Source: Candidatus Rokuibacteriota bacterium (lineage in GTDB: Bacteria; Methylomirabilota; Methylomirabilia; Rokubacteriales; DASRDR01). Taken from it: a stretch of DNA of 64,000 bases. Made by a program: the position numbers and the translations under genes. Positions 26,425 to 57,185 of this stretch are shown here, piece after piece. Under the pieces are notes generated by a model. That model searched no databases. It saw only the letters and a program-made list of their open reading frames with translations, and was not told the origin of the DNA. The stretch is from NCBI GenBank assembly GCA_044866005.1, contig JBIOTN010000057.1, positions 6,067-70,066 of the forward strand, given 5' to 3'. Numbering within the stretch: the first letter of the stretch is position 1; each line of letters begins with the position of its first letter.

Positions 26425-26703
26425 ATGGCGCGTCAGCGCCTGCTCGGGACCTCGCGGTGCCAGGCCGATCTCTACTGCCTCAAGCCGGGCCAGTCGCAGG
26501 CCGTCCATACCCACGCGGACCAGGACAAGCTATACTTCGGAGTGGAAGGGGTCGGACGCATCCGGGTGGCGGGCGAGGAGCAGCGGCTCGAGCCCGGCGT
26601 GCTCGTGCTCGCGCCTGCGAGCGTCGAGCACGGCCTCTCGAACCCGGGAGAGACGCCACTGGTGGTTCTCGTCATCGTCGTGCCCCCGCCGACGCACGGC
26701 TGA
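26425..26703 (+). CDS. Small cupin-domain protein
   Basis: 3' part of ORF 25171..26703. GQSQAVHTHADQDKLYFGVEGVGRIRVAGEE..LEPGVLVLAPASVEHGLSN. The start is uncertain; in-frame GTGs at 26377 and 26386 are also possible. Confidence 0.65.
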   Translation: MARQRLLGTSRCQADLYCLKPGQSQAVHTHADQDKLYFGVEGVGRIRVAGEEQRLEPGVLVLAPASVEHGLSNPGETPLVVLVIVVPPPTHG

Positions 26704-26709
26704 ACCGGC

Positions 26710-27459
26710 GTGCCGAGCGCGGCCGTCCTGGTCACCTGTCTCGTGGACCTCTTCTACCCCGAGGTCGGCGTCGCGCTGGTCCGTCTCCTCCGCCGCCACG
26801 GCGTACGGGTCGCGGTGCCGGACGGCCAGACCTGCTGCGGGCTGCCGCTCTTCAACTCGGGGTACCGGGCCGAGGCCGCACGGGTCGCGCGCCGCACCAT
26901 TCCGCTCTTCGCCGATGCCGAGCACGTGGTCGTCCCGTCGGGGTCGTGCGCCTGGATGGTCAAGGCCGAATACCCGCACCTCTTCCCGGACGACCCACCG
27001 GCGACGCGCGCGGCGACGGCGCTCGCCGCGAAGACCTACGAGCTCTCCCAGTTCCTCGTCTCCGTCCTCGGGGTGGAGAAGGTCCCGGCCACGGGGGGAG
27101 CCGCGAGCGGGCGGATCACCTACCACGACTCCTGCCACCTCCTGCGGGGGCTCGGCGAGGCGCGGGCCCCGCGGACGCTCCTCCGGAACGCCGGGGTGGA
27201 GGTCGTCGAGCTGCCGGGCGCGGACGAGTGCTGCGGCTTCGGCGGCTCGTTCGCGGTGCGACTCCCCGAGGTCTCGGGGGCGATCCTGGGACGCAAGCTC
27301 GAGAACGTCCGGGCCACCGGCGCCGACGCGGTCGTCGTCTGTGACGCGGGCTGCCTCATGCAGATGGCGGGCGGGGCACGGCGGGCGGGAGATCGCGTCC
27401 GTGTGCTCCACCTGGCGGAGCTGCTGGCCGGGGAGGCGGACGGTGCAGGCGACGCCTGA
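26710..27459 (+). CDS. lutA: LutA-type (Fe-S)/CCG-domain oxidoreductase of the lactate utilisation complex
   Basis: ORF 26710..27459. VLVTCLVDLFYPEVG, QTCCG, GSCAWM, DECCGFGG, CDAGCLMQ. Confidence 0.85.
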   Translation: MPSAAVLVTCLVDLFYPEVGVALVRLLRRHGVRVAVPDGQTCCGLPLFNSGYRAEAARVARRTIPLFADAEHVVVPSGSCAWMVKAEYPHLFPDDPPATRAATALAAKTYELSQFLVSVLGVEKVPATGGAASGRITYHDSCHLLRGLGEARAPRTLLRNAGVEVVELPGADECCGFGGSFAVRLPEVSGAILGRKLENVRATGADAVVVCDAGCLMQMAGGARRAGDRVRVLHLAELLAGEADGAGDA

Positions 27460-51988: not shown

Positions 51989-53877
51989 GCGGGCACGCGC
52001 CCGGGGCCGGCGTGGACGACGAGCTCCTCGGCCGCGCGTACGACCGGCGGCTCGTCGCCCGCCTGTGGGCGTTCGCGCGCACCTACCGGCGGGCGCTGGC
52101 GGCATCGGCCGCGCTCTTCCCGGTGCTGGCCGCCGTCGAGCTCGTCCAGCCGTACCTCGTGAAGGTGGCGATCGACGACCACATCGTGCGGCACGACTGG
52201 TCCGGGCTCTGGCGCGTGGCCGCGCTCTTCGTCCTCGCCCTCCTGGCGCAGTACGTCCTCCGCTCCGCGCACGGCTACCTCATGGCGTGGACCGGTCAGC
52301 GGGTGGTCCACGACCTCCGGCAGGCCCTCTTCGCCCACGTCCAGCGGCTGCCGGCCCGGGTCTTCGACGCGAACCCGGTCGGCCGGCTGATGACGCGGGT
52401 CCTGAACGACGTGGAAGCGATCGGCGAGCTGTTCACCTCCGGCGTCGTCGCGATCCTGGGCGACGCGCTGACCCTCGCCGGCGTGGTCGCCGTGATGCTG
52501 GCCCTGGACTGGCGCCTGGCGCTCGTCGCCTTCGCCGCCATCCCCGTGCTCTTCGGCGTGGCCGCCTACTTCCGGACACGCGCCCGCGAGGCCTACCGCG
52601 AGGTCCGGAACCGCATCGCGCGCGTGAACGCCTACCTTCAGGAGAACATCCTCGGCATGACCGTGGTCCAGCTCTTCGGGCGGGAGGCCGCCCACGCGCG
52701 GGAGTTCGCGCGCCTGAACGAGGCGCACCGCCGCTCGGTCTTCCGCCGGAGCCGCTACGACGCCCTCCTCTACGCGGGGGTCGAGGTGGTCGGCTCGGTG
52801 GCCATCGCCAGCCTCGTCTGGTGGGGCGGGGGCGAGATCCTGGCGGGCGCCGTGACCTTCGGGGTGCTCGTGGCCTTCATGGAGTACACGCACCGGTTCT
52901 TCCTGCCGATCCGGGACGTCTCGGCCAAGTACACGGTCATGCAGTCCGCGATGGTGGCCGCCGAGCGGATCTTCGGCCTCCTGGACACGCCCGTCGAGAT
53001 CGGGTCGCCGCCGGATGCCCATCGGCCGGCGCGGCCCGCCGCCGGGGGGCTCGCCATCGAGTTCCGGGACGTCTGGTTCCGCTACGGGCCGGCCGCGGTG
53101 TCGTCCGCGTCCCCGGTGGAGGGGGTCGGAGGGGCGGAGCGGTCGGGGCTCCCCCCCCAGGCCGAGGACGGCTGGGCCGTGCAGGGCCTGTCCGTCCGCG
53201 TGCGACCGGGCGAGCGGGTCGCCATCGTGGGTCCCACCGGCGCGGGCAAGAGCACGCTGGCGCGGCTGCTCACGCGCACCTACGACGTCCAGCGCGGTGC
53301 CGTCCTGGTCGACGGGGTCGACGTGCGCGCCTGGGACCTCACGGCCTTGCGCCGTCACGTCGGCGTGGTCCTCCAGGACGTCGTCGTCTTCTCCGGCACC
53401 GTGGAGGAGAACATCGCGCTCGGCGACCGCGAGGTCAAGCGCCCGGCGATCGAGGAGGCGGCGCGTCGCGCTCACATCGACGACTTCGTCCGGTCGCTGC
53501 CCGGCGGCTACGCCGAGGAGATCCGCGAGCGCGGCGCGAACCTCTCGCACGGCCAGCGTCAGCTCCTGGCCGTGGCGCGGGCGCTGGTATATAATCCTGC
53601 CGTTCTCGTCCTGGACGAGGCGACGTCGAGCGTGGATCCGGAGACCGAGCTCTTGCTCCAGGACGCGCTCGACCGTCTCCTCGCGGGGCGCACGAGCATG
53701 ATCATCGCGCACCGCTTCTCCACCATTCAGCGGGCCGACCGGGTGCTGGTCCTGCACCAGGGCCGGCTCGCTGAGGACGGGCCACATGACCGACTCATCA
53801 CGCAGGGCGGCCTTTACGCGACGCTCCACGACCTCTCCTTCGGTCGGGAGACGCTCGGCCCCGCCATTCCCCGCTGA
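51985..53877 (+). CDS. ABC exporter, fused permease/ATPase half-transporter (subunit 2)
   Basis: ORF 51985..53877. ATGA overlap with subunit 1. Walker A GPTGAGKST, signature LSHGQRQL, Walker B VLVLDEA. Confidence 0.9.
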   Translation: MSGHAPGAGVDDELLGRAYDRRLVARLWAFARTYRRALAASAALFPVLAAVELVQPYLVKVAIDDHIVRHDWSGLWRVAALFVLALLAQYVLRSAHGYLMAWTGQRVVHDLRQALFAHVQRLPARVFDANPVGRLMTRVLNDVEAIGELFTSGVVAILGDALTLAGVVAVMLALDWRLALVAFAAIPVLFGVAAYFRTRAREAYREVRNRIARVNAYLQENILGMTVVQLFGREAAHAREFARLNEAHRRSVFRRSRYDALLYAGVEVVGSVAIASLVWWGGGEILAGAVTFGVLVAFMEYTHRFFLPIRDVSAKYTVMQSAMVAAERIFGLLDTPVEIGSPPDAHRPARPAAGGLAIEFRDVWFRYGPAAVSSASPVEGVGGAERSGLPPQAEDGWAVQGLSVRVRPGERVAIVGPTGAGKSTLARLLTRTYDVQRGAVLVDGVDVRAWDLTALRRHVGVVLQDVVVFSGTVEENIALGDREVKRPAIEEAARRAHIDDFVRSLPGGYAEEIRERGANLSHGQRQLLAVARALVYNPAVLVLDEATSSVDPETELLLQDALDRLLAGRTSMIIAHRFSTIQRADRVLVLHQGRLAEDGPHDRLITQGGLYATLHDLSFGRETLGPAIPR

Positions 53878-53884
53878 AGGGGCG

Positions 53885-54277
53885 ATGCCCCCACCCCGTG
53901 CCCGGCCGGCCACCCGCTTCGACGGCGCGGTGTTCGCGCTCGTCCGCCGCGTGCCCGCCGGGCGCGTCGTCACCTACGGCCAGGTCGCCGCGCTCGTGGG
54001 TGCGCCGCGGGCGGCGCGTGCGGTGGGAGGCGCGATGCGACGGTGCCCCCCGGGCGTCCCGTGGCACCGCGTCATCAACGGCCGGGGCGGCGTCAGCCGG
54101 CGGGCCAACGTCGCGGGCATGGTCAGCCAGGCGCTCCTGCTCGAGCGGGAAGGGGTGCGCTTCGGGCGCGGCCGCGTGGACCTCGCGCGCCATCGCTGGC
54201 GGAGCCCGGGGAGGGCAGCCGCTGGGCGTCCAGCGGAACGTTGGGCATCGATGTCCCCGAAGCGCAGCCTGACGTGA
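53885..54277 (+). CDS. Alkyltransferase-like (ATL) protein: MGMT DNA-binding domain with Trp at the acceptor-Cys position
   Basis: 3' part of ORF 53786..54277 from ATG 53885. VVTYGQVAALVG.PRAARAVGGAM...VPWHRVI (canonical MGMT has PCHRV). Confidence 0.75.
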   Translation: MPPPRARPATRFDGAVFALVRRVPAGRVVTYGQVAALVGAPRAARAVGGAMRRCPPGVPWHRVINGRGGVSRRANVAGMVSQALLLEREGVRFGRGRVDLARHRWRSPGRAAAGRPAERWASMSPKRSLT

Positions 54278-54792
54278 AGGAATCGGCGGCCGACCGGGTC
54301 CAGAGAGCCCTCCGCGCCCACGGTGTCACGAGCGAGGTGGTCGAGCTGGCGGAAGGCGCCCGGACGGCGCCCGAGGCCGCCGCGGCCTGCGGCGTGAGCG
54401 TGGCGCAGATCGTGAAGTCCCTCGTCTTCCTGGCCGACGGCGAGCCGGTCCTGGTGCTGGCCTCCGGCGCCAACCATGTGGACGAGCAACGGCTGGCGGC
54501 GCTGACCGGCCGGGCCATCCGCCGGGCCGACGCGGCGGCCGTGCGCGCGGCGACGGGCTTCTCGATCGGGGGCGTGCCGCCCGTGGCGCACACGCAGGCC
54601 CTGCGGACCTTCGTCGACCGGGACCTCCTGGCCCACGACGCCCTCATCGCGGCGGCCGGCACCCCGCACGCGGTCGTCCGGCTGACCCCGGGCGAGCTCT
54701 GCCGGATCACGGCCGGCGAGGTCGCGGACGTCAAGCGGGAGCCGAGCGTGGCGGACCGCGTCCCTCCGCGCCCGGGCGTGCCATGCGGGTGA
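54274..54792 (+). CDS. YbaK/EbsC-family aminoacyl-tRNA deacylase domain protein
   Basis: 3' part of ORF 54043..54792 from GTG 54274 (GTGA overlap). ARTAPEAAAACGVSVAQIVKSLVF...GFSIGGVPPV. Confidence 0.75.
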   Translation: MKESAADRVQRALRAHGVTSEVVELAEGARTAPEAAAACGVSVAQIVKSLVFLADGEPVLVLASGANHVDEQRLAALTGRAIRRADAAAVRAATGFSIGGVPPVAHTQALRTFVDRDLLAHDALIAAAGTPHAVVRLTPGELCRITAGEVADVKREPSVADRVPPRPGVPCG

Positions 54793-55649
54793 TGCCGCTC
54801 GCCGCCGACTCGCTCGGCGTCCGCTCGATGGCCACGTACGTCGAGGCGGGCGACCTGCGCCTCCTTCTCGACCCGGGCGCGACCCTCAGCCCGCGCCGCT
54901 ACGGCATGGACCCGACCCCCGAGGAGGCGGAGGCCCTCAAGCGCGCTCTCGACCGCATCGAGGGCTACGCGCGGCGGGCCGCCCTCATCACGGTCAGCCA
55001 CTACCACGGCGATCACTACGCCGCGGTGCCCGACCTCTACGCGGGCCGTCGCGTCTGGGCGAAGGACCCCCGCCGGATGACCGACGCCCATCAGGCCGCC
55101 CGCGGCCGCGCCTTCTGGCGGACGCTCGGCGGCAACGCGACGCTCGAGCCCGCGGAGGGGCGGGCCACCGAGATCGGCGGCGTCCGCGTGAAGGTCTCGC
55201 CGCCGCTCGCGCACGGGCGCGAGGGCACGGGGTTCGGCTTCGTCGTCGCGGTCACCGTGGACGACGGCAGTCGCTTCGTGCACGCCGCCGACGTCCAGGG
55301 CCCCGCGTCCGCCGTGGCGACCGCATATCTCCTGCGCGAGCGGCCCGACCTGCTGTACCTCTCGGGCCCGCCGACGTACCTGGAGGCGCAGCTCGGCCCC
55401 GCCGTGCTGCGGCAGGGGCTCGACAACCTCTTGCGCATCGTCAACGAGACGGGCTGCCGCGTGATCGTGGACCACCACGCGCTGCGCGATCGGCGCTACC
55501 GGGAGCGGCTGGGCCCCGCCTTCGAGACCGGCCGCGTGGTGACCGTCGCCGAGTACCTCGGTCGGCGGGACGAGTGCCTGGAGGCCCACCGGCCCGAGCT
55601 CTGGGCGCGCCATCGCCGGGCTCGCGGCAGCCCGGTTGTTTCCTCGTGA
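54783..55649 (+). CDS. MBL-fold metallo-hydrolase (UPF0282-like)
   Basis: ORF 54783..55649. SLGVRSMATYVE..LLLDPG, VSHYHGDHY, FVHAADVQGP. Confidence 0.7.
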   Translation: MRVMPLAADSLGVRSMATYVEAGDLRLLLDPGATLSPRRYGMDPTPEEAEALKRALDRIEGYARRAALITVSHYHGDHYAAVPDLYAGRRVWAKDPRRMTDAHQAARGRAFWRTLGGNATLEPAEGRATEIGGVRVKVSPPLAHGREGTGFGFVVAVTVDDGSRFVHAADVQGPASAVATAYLLRERPDLLYLSGPPTYLEAQLGPAVLRQGLDNLLRIVNETGCRVIVDHHALRDRRYRERLGPAFETGRVVTVAEYLGRRDECLEAHRPELWARHRRARGSPVVSS

Positions 55650-55671
55650 TCATCGGAAAGGAGGAGCCGTC

Positions 55672-56133
55672 ATGGCCGAGCTGAAGGTGGACGACGTCGC
55701 CCCCGATTTCAAGCTCCAGGGGATCGGCGGCAAGGAGTGGAGCCTGGCCGACCAGAGGGGGAAGAAGAACGTGGTCCTCCTCTTCTACGTCCTGGACTGG
55801 ACCCCCGGCTGAACGAAGGAGATGCCGGCCTTCGAAGCCCGGCTCAAGGACTTCGAGGCCGCCGATACCCAGGTCGTGGGTATCTCGACCGACTCGATCT
55901 ACAGCCACGACGCGTGGGCCAAGTCCCTCGGCGGGATCTCGTATCCCCTCCTCGGCGACATCCATCGCGACGTCGTCAAGAAGTACGGGATCCACTGGCC
56001 CGAGCTGAACGCCTGCTACCGGGCGACGTTCGTGATCGACAAGCAAGGCAAGCTCCGCTTCGTCGAGCGGTACGGCAAGGGCGAGCTGCCCGACCCCACG
56101 AAGATCCTGGCGGAGGTGAAGAAGCTCCGCTGA
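55672..56133 (+). CDS. AhpC/TSA (BCP/PrxQ-like) peroxiredoxin with in-frame TGA at the peroxidatic-Cys position: probable selenocysteine-containing peroxiredoxin (alternatively a pseudogene)
   Basis: ATG 55672 with GGAAAGGAGGAG SD. Reading [49 protein letters not shown](55810..55812)[11 protein letters not shown]... is in frame with ORF 55822..56133 (GISTDS..SH.AWA...YPLLGD...YRATFVID). A hairpin lies 11 nt after the TGA. Confidence 0.7.
55824..55843 (+). promoter_or_regulatory. Candidate bacterial SECIS hairpin
   Basis: GCCGG-C-CU-UCGA-AG-C-CCGGC: a 5-bp lower stem, a C/C mismatch, 2-3 bp and a small G-containing apical loop. It starts 11 nt after the UGA, the same spacing as the E. coli fdhF SECIS. 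Confidence 0.5.
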
Positions 56134-56153
56134 GCGGTGCGGGGCGCGGCGAT

Positions 56154-57185
56154 GTGACCGACACGGCGCCTCGTCGCGCCCCACTCCGCGCGGCAGACTT
56201 GTTCCCGGTGAGCGGATCCCTCGCCTCCCGCCGCCCCGGCGACAACCTGGGCGCCCACATGTCCATCGCGGGCGGCCTCCCGAACGCGCTCGCCCGCGGG
56301 CGCGAGCTCGGCTGCGGGGTGGTGCAGCTCTTCCTCAAGAACCAGGTCCAGTGGGCGGGGCGCGCGCTCCACGCCGACGAGGTCGCGGAGTTTCGCCGGC
56401 TGTGCACGGCATGCGCGTTCGCGGCCGTCTTCGCCCACGCCACGTACCTGCCGAACCTCGCCTCGCCGGAGGCCGTCGAGTGGGCCCGCTCGGTCGCCGC
56501 GTTCCACGACGAGCTGGAGCGCGCCGAGGCCCTGGGGCTTCCTTTCGTGGTGATCCACCCGGGCTCGCACAAGGGCGCGGGGCGCGAGGCGGGGCTCACG
56601 CAGGTGGCCCGCGCGCTCGACGAGCTCTGCGCGCGCACCGCGGGCTACCAGGTGCGGATCGCGCTCGAGAACACCGCGGGCGCGGGGAATCTCATCGGCG
56701 CGCGGGCGGAGGAGCTGGGAACGCTCTTCCGCGCCGTGAACCGCCCCGAGCGGCTCGGCCTCTGCCTCGACACGTGCCACCTCTTCGCCGCCGGGTACGA
56801 CATCCGGCGCCCCGCGGGCTTTGCCGCGGCGCTCGCCCGGTTCGACGCGGCGGTCGGCCTCGACCGCGTCATCGCCTTCCACGTGAACGACGCGAAGACC
56901 GGGCTCGGCTCGGGGCTCGACCGCCACGCGCACATCGGCCGCGGCACGATCGGGCTCGCGGCGTTCCGGTTCCTCCTCCGCCACCCGCGCCTGGGCGGGC
57001 TGCCGATGGCGCTGGAGACGCCGAAGGAAGACGTCTGGGACGCGCGGAACCTGGCGACGCTCCGTCGGCTGCAGCGCCCGTCGGCCGGCCGCGCGCGACG
57101 GTCGACGCGGGGCGCAAACGGGCCGGCAGGCTCGGCGCGCACGCCGCCCCGGCAGCGGGCGCCGCACCCCACCCGGGGCGGCTGA
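56154..57185 (+). CDS. nfo: Endonuclease IV (AP endonuclease, Nfo)
   Basis: 3' part of ORF 55737..57185. Start GTG 56154 or GTG 56208. LGAHMSIAGG, VQLFLKN, FAHATYLPNL, VVIHPGSH, ALENTAG, DTCHLFAAGYD, FHVNDAK...DRHAHIG. Low-complexity Arg/Pro tail. Confidence 0.85.
   Translation: MTDTAPRRAPLRAADLFPVSGSLASRRPGDNLGAHMSIAGGLPNALARGRELGCGVVQLFLKNQVQWAGRALHADEVAEFRRLCTACAFAAVFAHATYLPNLASPEAVEWARSVAAFHDELERAEALGLPFVVIHPGSHKGAGREAGLTQVARALDELCARTAGYQVRIALENTAGAGNLIGARAEELGTLFRAVNRPERLGLCLDTCHLFAAGYDIRRPAGFAAALARFDAAVGLDRVIAFHVNDAKTGLGSGLDRHAHIGRGTIGLAAFRFLLRHPRLGGLPMALETPKEDVWDARNLATLRRLQRPSAGRARRSTRGANGPAGSARTPPRQRAPHPTRGG

Follow-up and report, generated by a model that had tools for sequence, protein, structure and literature searches.

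A peroxiredoxin containing selenocysteine (Sec, U), PrxU of Eubacterium acidaminophilum, was reportedly described by Sohling et al. in 2001. Peroxiredoxins with a TxxU active site are an experimentally established selenoprotein family, of which the Sargasso Sea set yielded 43 genes (PMC13188914; PMC1088965), and peroxiredoxin-like thiol:disulfide oxidoreductases with a UxxC motif and the PF00578 domain form a further group of selenoproteins (PMC13188914, PMC1088965). For the bacterial Sec insertion sequence (SECIS) the published model gives a loop of 3–9 nucleotides (nt), a stem of 4–16 base pairs (bp), a G in the first two loop positions, a distance of 16–37 nt from the UGA, and a free energy of -7.5 kcal/mol or lower; the same review mentions that some bacterial candidates deviate from this consensus (PMC13188914). 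The present work concerns a stretch of 64,000 nt from a Candidatus Rokuibacteriota bacterium (contig JBIOTN010000057.1 of assembly GCA_044866005.1, positions 6,067 to 70,066 of the forward strand), here called the window, and in it a peroxiredoxin gene at 55672-56133 with an in-frame TGA at codon 47. A sequence-only reading of the window had proposed that this TGA replaces the catalytic cysteine codon and encodes Sec. The comparison with orthologues described here leads to the same view, in that the gene is judged, with a probability of roughly 85%, to be a translated selenoprotein gene in which UGA is read as Sec. In the mechanism proposed the SelB/tRNA-Sec system would insert selenocysteine U47 at UGA 55810-55812 of a 153-residue peroxiredoxin of the AhpC/TSA fold.

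Conservation of the TGA and of the protein around it

The mechanically made list of open reading frames (ORFs) holds just two pieces of the gene, 55636-55812 (58 amino acids) and 55822-56133 (103 amino acids), and the public gene calls cut it into parts of 46 and 103 amino acids, both matching PF00578. The sequence-only reading had started instead from the ATG at 55672-55674, behind a strong Shine-Dalgarno sequence, and had continued in the same frame past the TGA. Direct reading and translation bear this out. An AGGAGG is found upstream of the ATG, and the frame stays open between the two TGAs, yielding a product of 153 amino acids (153 codons plus stop). With cysteine placed at the TGA this protein matches the AhpC/TSA profile PF00578 with residues 6-130 over positions 1-123 of the 124 in the profile (134.6 bits, E 2.2e-39, cut-off 26). 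As the match runs across codon 47, a single domain straddles the TGA. The same codon terminates 39 of the 49 coding-like ORFs in the window, the peroxiredoxin gene included, which excludes a reassigned genetic code and makes the recoding a local event. The 103-amino-acid piece is found in identical form on contigs of two metagenome-assembled genomes (MAGs) at NCBI and in one independent Logan read-set assembly. Since independent assemblies contain the same split gene, the TGA is reproducible, and the public annotation of the gene is wrong.

Protein searches retrieved two types of relatives, full-length proteins of 155 amino acids with 62–69% identity, and a much larger set of 102–104 amino acids with 82–94% identity which correspond to the part behind the TGA alone, as would be expected were the stop shared by many relatives. 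When one genome per species was scanned, 45 loci were obtained, nearly all of them from MAGs labelled Methylomirabilota or Rokubacteria (loci L031 and L036 carry other phylum labels). A TGA at the homologous codon (DWTPG*[TS], the asterisk standing for TGA) is present in the window and in 38 species-level genomes, which makes 39 of 39 Sec-type genes, spanning 64–90% amino acid identity, and with so many recurrences chance can be dismissed as the cause. Clade A comprises 16 genes (L001-L014, L040, and the window) with 77–90% identity to the window, all reading FYVLDWTPG*, and clade B (L016-L038) has 64–69% identity to the window and the motif FYPLDWTPG*S[KT]CM. The sequence-only reading had named scattered stops or frameshifts in close relatives as a sign of decay. 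Neither is seen: the TGA is the sole interruption in each Sec-type gene, no frame is shifted, and the N-terminal part is complete (L038 is truncated where its contig ends). The ratio of nonsynonymous to synonymous substitution rates in pairwise comparisons is 0.17–0.34 over the 43 codons before the TGA and 0.22–0.43 after it. These values are alike, so the part behind the TGA is as constrained as the rest.

A few relatives carry a cysteine codon at this position, TGC in L015 and TGT in the metagenomic group L046-L051 (P0017 for L046-L049 and P0103 for L050-L051), each one base away from TGA, and alignment with these orthologues places the TGA exactly on the TGC and TGT. Cysteine is also found in L041-L045 and in distant homologues from Kribbella and Microvirga. 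In solved 2-Cys peroxiredoxins (6j13, 5zte, 5ijt) the TGA aligns with the peroxidatic cysteine (FYPLDFTFVCPTE), in agreement with what had been supposed from the window alone. Conservation of the TGA, purifying selection on both sides of it, and the alignment with cysteine are together what sequence comparison typically shows for a selenoprotein gene, and the proposal of recoding rather than decay thus stands.

The alternative that the gene is a pseudogene, or is truly split into products of 46 and 103 amino acids, can draw on the two ORFs given by gene callers and on the ATG at 55822, behind the TGA, which in clade A has an AGGAG just upstream. This AGGAG, however, ends one base before the ATG, too close for a ribosome-binding site, and is missing in clade B (AAGTGCATG), and the methionine in question, Met51, is conserved in the uninterrupted cysteine forms too. 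Neither piece alone holds a complete thioredoxin fold or active site. Together with the finding that the 39 genomes share a single stop which is invariably TGA and invariably falls on the catalytic codon, and with the purifying selection on the part before it, this makes decay or a true split very improbable.

Besides the residue encoded by TGA, two further residues of the peroxiredoxin active site are retained. The TxxU motif is present as T44-P-G-U47, with the threonine three residues before U47, and Arg117 (YRATFVID) aligns with the arginine of LRGLFIID and YRGLFIID in solved peroxiredoxin structures and is invariant in all 38 aligned sequences, as the sequence-only reading had expected for its active-site arginine. 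That reading had also invoked the motif FYPxDxTPxC. Of this the threonine is kept, whereas the proline of PxxxTxxC is replaced by Val40 throughout the 16 genes of clade A, the window included; it is retained in clade B and in the cysteine forms. Behind the TGA the clade of the window reads U-T-K-E (TKEM), with glutamate where clade B has cysteine (S[KT]CM, hence UxxC). The only other cysteine of the window protein, C115, is not conserved. The lack of a conserved second cysteine in clade A makes a one-Sec mechanism with an external thiol reductant likely. By homology the protein is predicted to be a short thiol (here selenol) peroxidase with an active site of U47, Thr44, and Arg117. U47 would attack the peroxide with assistance of Thr44 and Arg117, and the resulting selenenic acid would in clade A be reduced by an external thiol partner.

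Three observations concern the cysteine forms and their kin. In the cysteine-type loci the upstream YbaK gene and the protein directly upstream of the peroxiredoxin look similar to those of the window. P0103 is assigned by one source to Candidatus Dormibacteraeota, a hint of a transfer out of Methylomirabilota followed by a conversion of Sec to cysteine. A 615-nt contig from ENA (P0016) has arginine at the Sec/cysteine position (TPGRSTCM); this is a one-base change from TGA (to CGA or AGA) and may be due to a sequencing error or represent a genuine, inactive variant.

Two hairpins downstream of the UGA

The sequence-only reading had seen a hairpin at 55824-55843 and had taken it for the SECIS. 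A hairpin does begin 11 nt past the UGA, but within the limits given then only 47% of cells are paired across the 39 orthologues, with no covariation, and it was rejected as a conserved SECIS. Single-sequence folds contain instead a longer hairpin from the same starting point, H1, which forms in all 39 sequences with -12 to -27 kcal/mol. Its core pair is part of the minimum-energy fold in 36 of the 39, and 96.9% of the lower-stem cells are paired. A first register of the lower stem, which is also the choice of RNAalifold, showed no two-sided changes and was abandoned for the register of the single-sequence folds, which is more contiguous and includes a covarying pair. This pair, 55827/55860 (CG 24, GC 11, UG 2, other 2), joins the third positions of a proline and an alanine codon 33 nt apart. 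In the alignment its G-C form occurs in one subclade of clade A and in two genes of clade B, from which it follows that the pair switched several times independently. Perfect hairpins 16–37 nt from the UGA, looked for under strict criteria, are absent from all 39 sequences, because H1 contains bulges.

From the base following H1 a second and smaller hairpin, H2, is formed by GAUACCCA-GGUCG-UGGGUAUC, with 98.5% of cells paired. It has a stem of 7–9 bp and a loop of 3–5 nt (8 bp and a GUG loop in clade B). The loop begins with GGU in 39 of 39 sequences, and pair 55867/55881 covaries (AU 29, GC 7, GU 1), GC being found in clade A as well as in clade B. The codons of H2 are atypical for a gene family rich in G and C at third codon positions. 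Asparagine is encoded by AAT in 27 of 28 cases at H2 versus 7 of 153 elsewhere, glycine by GGT in 29 of 38 versus 22 of 435, and threonine by ACC in 30 of 30 versus 103 of 247. The cysteine lineage L050/L051 has changed the loop start from GGU to GCU by replacement of valine with leucine. In the DNA examined the H2 motif CCCAGGTNNTGGG is confined to the peroxiredoxin genes, plus one chance match at a gene start in L009. When compared with the bacterial SECIS model H2 departs from it in spacing only, the loop being 59 nt past the UGA.

This distance becomes shorter when folding is taken into account. In the window the two hairpins abut when folded (-33.5 kcal/mol, z = -2.2), and the UGA is followed by 11 unpaired nucleotides and then by H1, closed by G55824-C55863. 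In the 30 sequences in which both hairpins are part of the minimum-energy fold, the number of unpaired nucleotides that separate the UGA from the base of H2 is in most cases 10–18 (range 5–21), with a mode of 10–11. As this mode equals the spacing of a standard element, H2 is favoured as the hairpin bound by SelB and H1 as a folded spacer, an assignment to which somewhat better than even odds are given. SelB would bind H2 with its GGU loop start, and folding of H1 would bring H2 to about 11 nt from the UGA despite 52 nt in the linear sequence. That the element as a whole is a split bacterial SECIS, with H2 lying 52–72 nt downstream of the UGA and carried to the mRNA entrance of the ribosome by H1, is put at about even odds.

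Several points weigh against this assignment. In linear sequence the H2 loop lies outside the published range of 16–37 nt, while the apical loop of H1, at 27–30 nt past the UGA, lies inside it and has a G in its first two positions in 26 of the 39 sequences, so that H1 rather than H2 may serve as the SECIS. Clear covariation is limited to one pair per hairpin, the other pairs being invariant or fixed by conserved codons (two Phe-Glu codon pairs). The sequences are related by descent, and shuffle and Fisher statistics consequently overstate significance, although the effect sizes for the codon choices at H2 are large. Rfam has no family at gathering score over the window, and the matches in 55780-55920 are at chance level (E up to 10) and include no SECIS family. 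Furthermore, H1 and H2 are both kept in the cysteine-type relatives L015 and L046-L051. This could reflect a recent conversion of Sec to cysteine or a role unrelated to Sec; the closeness of the cysteine forms to the Sec-type L028 and L036 at the protein level fits the former but does not prove a Sec-specific role of the hairpins.

The same selenoprotein could accordingly be made with H1 as the working SECIS and with H2 in an accessory function, for example as a ribosome pause site or mRNA stabiliser. Besides its distance from the UGA, the window loop GGCUCAA, which opens with G, and the folding of H1 in every sequence with covariation at a pair of synonymous sites speak for this. The H1 loop, on the other hand, is variable in sequence, 13 of the 39 sequences lack a G in its first two positions, and the upper stem which closes it has just 2–5 bp, whereas H2 and the PrdB-type SECIS of the same lineage (see below) always have G-U there. 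With H1 as the SECIS the invariant GGU of H2 and its forced atypical codons would also be left unexplained. A working SECIS in H1 is thus considered rather unlikely, and H2 is retained as the candidate for SelB binding. If this is true, the gene family offers a natural case of distance compensation by RNA folding, with H1 starting exactly where a standard SECIS would start, and a natural experiment on how far the distance between UGA and SECIS may vary for bacterial SelB. Programs that look for a SECIS within a set distance of the UGA would overlook or misassign recoding signals of this kind. Confirmed by experiment, it would be a well-documented case, supported by covariation, of a SECIS outside the consensus.

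Probable selenocysteine use in the lineage

No selA, selB, or selD was found by tblastn with the Escherichia coli proteins in the window and the 45 loci (754 kb), and ARAGORN detected neither a tRNA of any kind in the window nor a tRNA-Sec in 40 related loci. These negative results count against a Sec reading; they cover the window and the related loci and say nothing on the whole genome. Indirectly, Sec use by the lineage is well supported. A scan of the related loci for further coding-looking in-frame TGAs led to a gene of the PrdB/GrdB family in L013 (Rokubacteria CSP1-6; 401-1243), 9 kb upstream of the peroxiredoxin orthologue. It matches PF07355 above cut-off (E 1e-9) and TIGR04483 (E 8e-42), and its TGA at 863-865 lies in VPV-U-PVC. 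This is a UxxC arrangement, which PMC13188914 lists as the redox motif of PrdB/GrdB selenoproteins. A scan of metagenomes with this protein yielded nine distinct UGA forms and 17 cysteine forms. All nine UGA forms have, from 10 nt past the UGA, a stem of 8 bp (7–8 of the 8 paired) with a GUN loop. In this PrdB-like SECIS the UGA and 10 nt are followed by AUCAGUCC-GUG-GGACUGAU, the loop lying 18 nt past the UGA. Compensatory changes are seen in L069 and L077, and the hairpin is found in none of the 17 cysteine forms.

A passage in PMC13188914 mentions, citing Deng et al. 2026, a Methylomirabilota MAG with 63 predicted selenoprotein genes, and Sec-type hydrogenases have been reported in this phylum (PMC13582414). 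These data bear on the question whether the UGA might be decoded as cysteine or another standard amino acid, by a SelB-dependent tRNA-Cys(UCA) of the tRNA-ReC type or by near-cognate readthrough. According to a passage in PMC13582414, which cites Vargas-Rodriguez 2018, tRNA-ReC-like tRNAs read SECIS-linked UGA as cysteine in several soil phyla. Insertion of Sec and of cysteine cannot be distinguished by sequence alone, and cysteine functions at the position of codon 47 in close relatives. A tRNA of the tRNA-ReC type, however, was not found in the 754 kb examined, a cysteine product gives no evident selection for TGA in 39 lineages with TGC and TGT one base away, the phylum is reported to be selenoprotein-rich (PMC13188914), and a classical Sec family, the PrdB-like one, occurs with its SECIS near one of the peroxiredoxin orthologues. 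Decoding as a standard amino acid is hence considered improbable, and Sec is inferred to be the residue inserted.

A further in-frame TGA was seen in L033, where a gene at 639-1589 encodes a membrane protein with a DedA/VTT domain fused to a rhodanese domain. The TGA (1446-1448) is situated in the rhodanese active-site loop (IIAYCV-U-PNEVSS), 46 more coding-like codons complete the domain, and a weak hairpin, CGA-GGUC-UCG, follows 8 nt past the TGA. No homologue is present in the other loci. This gene may be another selenoprotein.

The locus compared with described selenoproteins

The features of the peroxiredoxin gene are compiled in Table 1.

Table 1. Positions of the peroxiredoxin gene features in the window
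Feature	Position	Strand	Basis or remark
Shine-Dalgarno sequence AGGAGG	55659..55664	+	7 nt before the start codon
Full peroxiredoxin coding sequence, residue 47 = TGA	55672..56133	+	Translation, PF00578, full-length orthologues in 39 genomes
Active-site motif V40-L-D-W-T44	55789..55803	+	Thr44 of TxxU kept; Val instead of the usual Pro
In-frame TGA, predicted selenocysteine U47, peroxidatic residue	55810..55812	+	Conserved TGA, alignment with peroxidatic Cys
Hairpin H1, proposed spacer	55824..55863	+	About 13 bp, variable apical loop, begins 11 nt past UGA
Hairpin H2, proposed SelB-binding SECIS, loop 55872-55876	55864..55884	+	Pairing, covariation, invariant GGU
Codon of Arg117, conserved active-site arginine (YRATFVID)	56020..56022	+	Arg in 38/38 aligned sequences
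True stop TGA	56131..56133	+	Direct reading, translation

The gene is part of a co-directional array, in which the sequence-only reading had correctly recognised all four neighbours. An ATL/MGMT DNA-binding domain (53786-54277), a YbaK/tRNA_edit domain inside 54043-54792, and an MBL fold protein (54783-55649) precede it, and an Nfo-type AP endonuclease (endonuclease IV, 56259-57185) follows, all on the same strand as the peroxiredoxin. In the last codons of the MBL fold gene, directly upstream of the ribosome-binding site of the peroxiredoxin, a terminator-like hairpin (GCCGGGCTCGCGGCAGCCCGGT, 55615-55645) is followed by TGTTTCC, so that transcription into prx could be attenuated or uncoupled. 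At 56141-56182, 8 nt past the peroxiredoxin stop, there is a further hairpin, GC-rich, very stable, and without a U tract (-44.3 kcal/mol and z = -2.7 for the 75-nt stretch containing it), possibly a terminator or an element of the repeat type that separates prx from nfo. Elsewhere in the window a second in-frame TGA with coding-like sequence on both sides, at 26701-26703, was rejected as a selenoprotein candidate. A small cupin-like gene has its ordinary stop there, and the sequence downstream in the same frame belongs to the next gene, which is cysteine-rich and LutA/GlpC-like and starts near 26710.

In the public annotation of this genome and of dozens of others from Methylomirabilota and Rokubacteria, a catalytic selenoprotein appears as two fragments without meaning, and the antioxidant capacity and selenium dependence of a phylum widespread in soil and groundwater are therefore under-counted. 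With 39 Sec forms and several very recent cysteine forms of one enzyme, the family is also a clean set for studying the benefit of Sec to a peroxiredoxin.

In common with the TxxU peroxiredoxin selenoproteins the gene has the PF00578 fold, Sec at the position of the peroxidatic cysteine, a bacterial SECIS candidate within the gene, and cysteine homologues alongside; unlike in these, the candidate hairpin for SelB stands 59 nt from the UGA and behind a second hairpin. From PrxU it differs in its short length of 153 amino acids, in the valine in place of the motif proline in clade A, and in its score of 54.7 bits with the PrxU equivalog NF040737, well below the cut-off of 270. No NCBIfam model was reached at its cut-off, the selenoprotein-specific PrxU and Prx-SUH models included. 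Clade B, with TPG-U-S-K/T-C on the PF00578 fold, resembles the UxxC peroxiredoxin-like oxidoreductases. Clade A has lost the second cysteine, so that no intramolecular selenenylsulfide is possible, and both clades, unlike these oxidoreductases, keep the TxxU context of peroxiredoxins.

In size the window protein is similar to AhpE and BCP. AhpE of Mycobacterium tuberculosis (Rv2238c), a short 1-Cys peroxiredoxin, likewise has 153 amino acids and one catalytic residue, which in AhpE is a cysteine. Among structures of this size it gives the best full-length match (residues 4-142 of the query on 2-141 of the AhpE chain, E about 5e-18); typical 2-Cys peroxiredoxins score slightly higher over the core (82.9 versus 68.8 bits for AhpE), and assignment to the AhpE subfamily is not established.

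On the RNA side the H2 loop GGUCG of the window contains the GGUC of the SECIS of E. coli fdhF (UGCA-GGUC-UGCA, as read from K-12), and H2 has the shape of the PrdB-like SECIS of the L013 lineage. In both of these the loop is 18 nt past the UGA, compared with 59 nt in the window, where the 40-nt hairpin H1 lies between. The nearest known precedent is an engineered one, as Su, Li, and Gladyshev are said to have obtained in 2005 a SECIS in the 3' untranslated region which worked in E. coli, with a stem bringing it near the UGA. As a Sec-containing peroxiredoxin the gene is new and unannotated. It joins a class which has been known since 2001 and is abundant in metagenomes, in a phylum already reported to be rich in selenoproteins, and departs from the textbook in the replacement of proline by valine, in the loss of the second cysteine in one clade, and above all in its two-hairpin RNA with a far SECIS-like hairpin.

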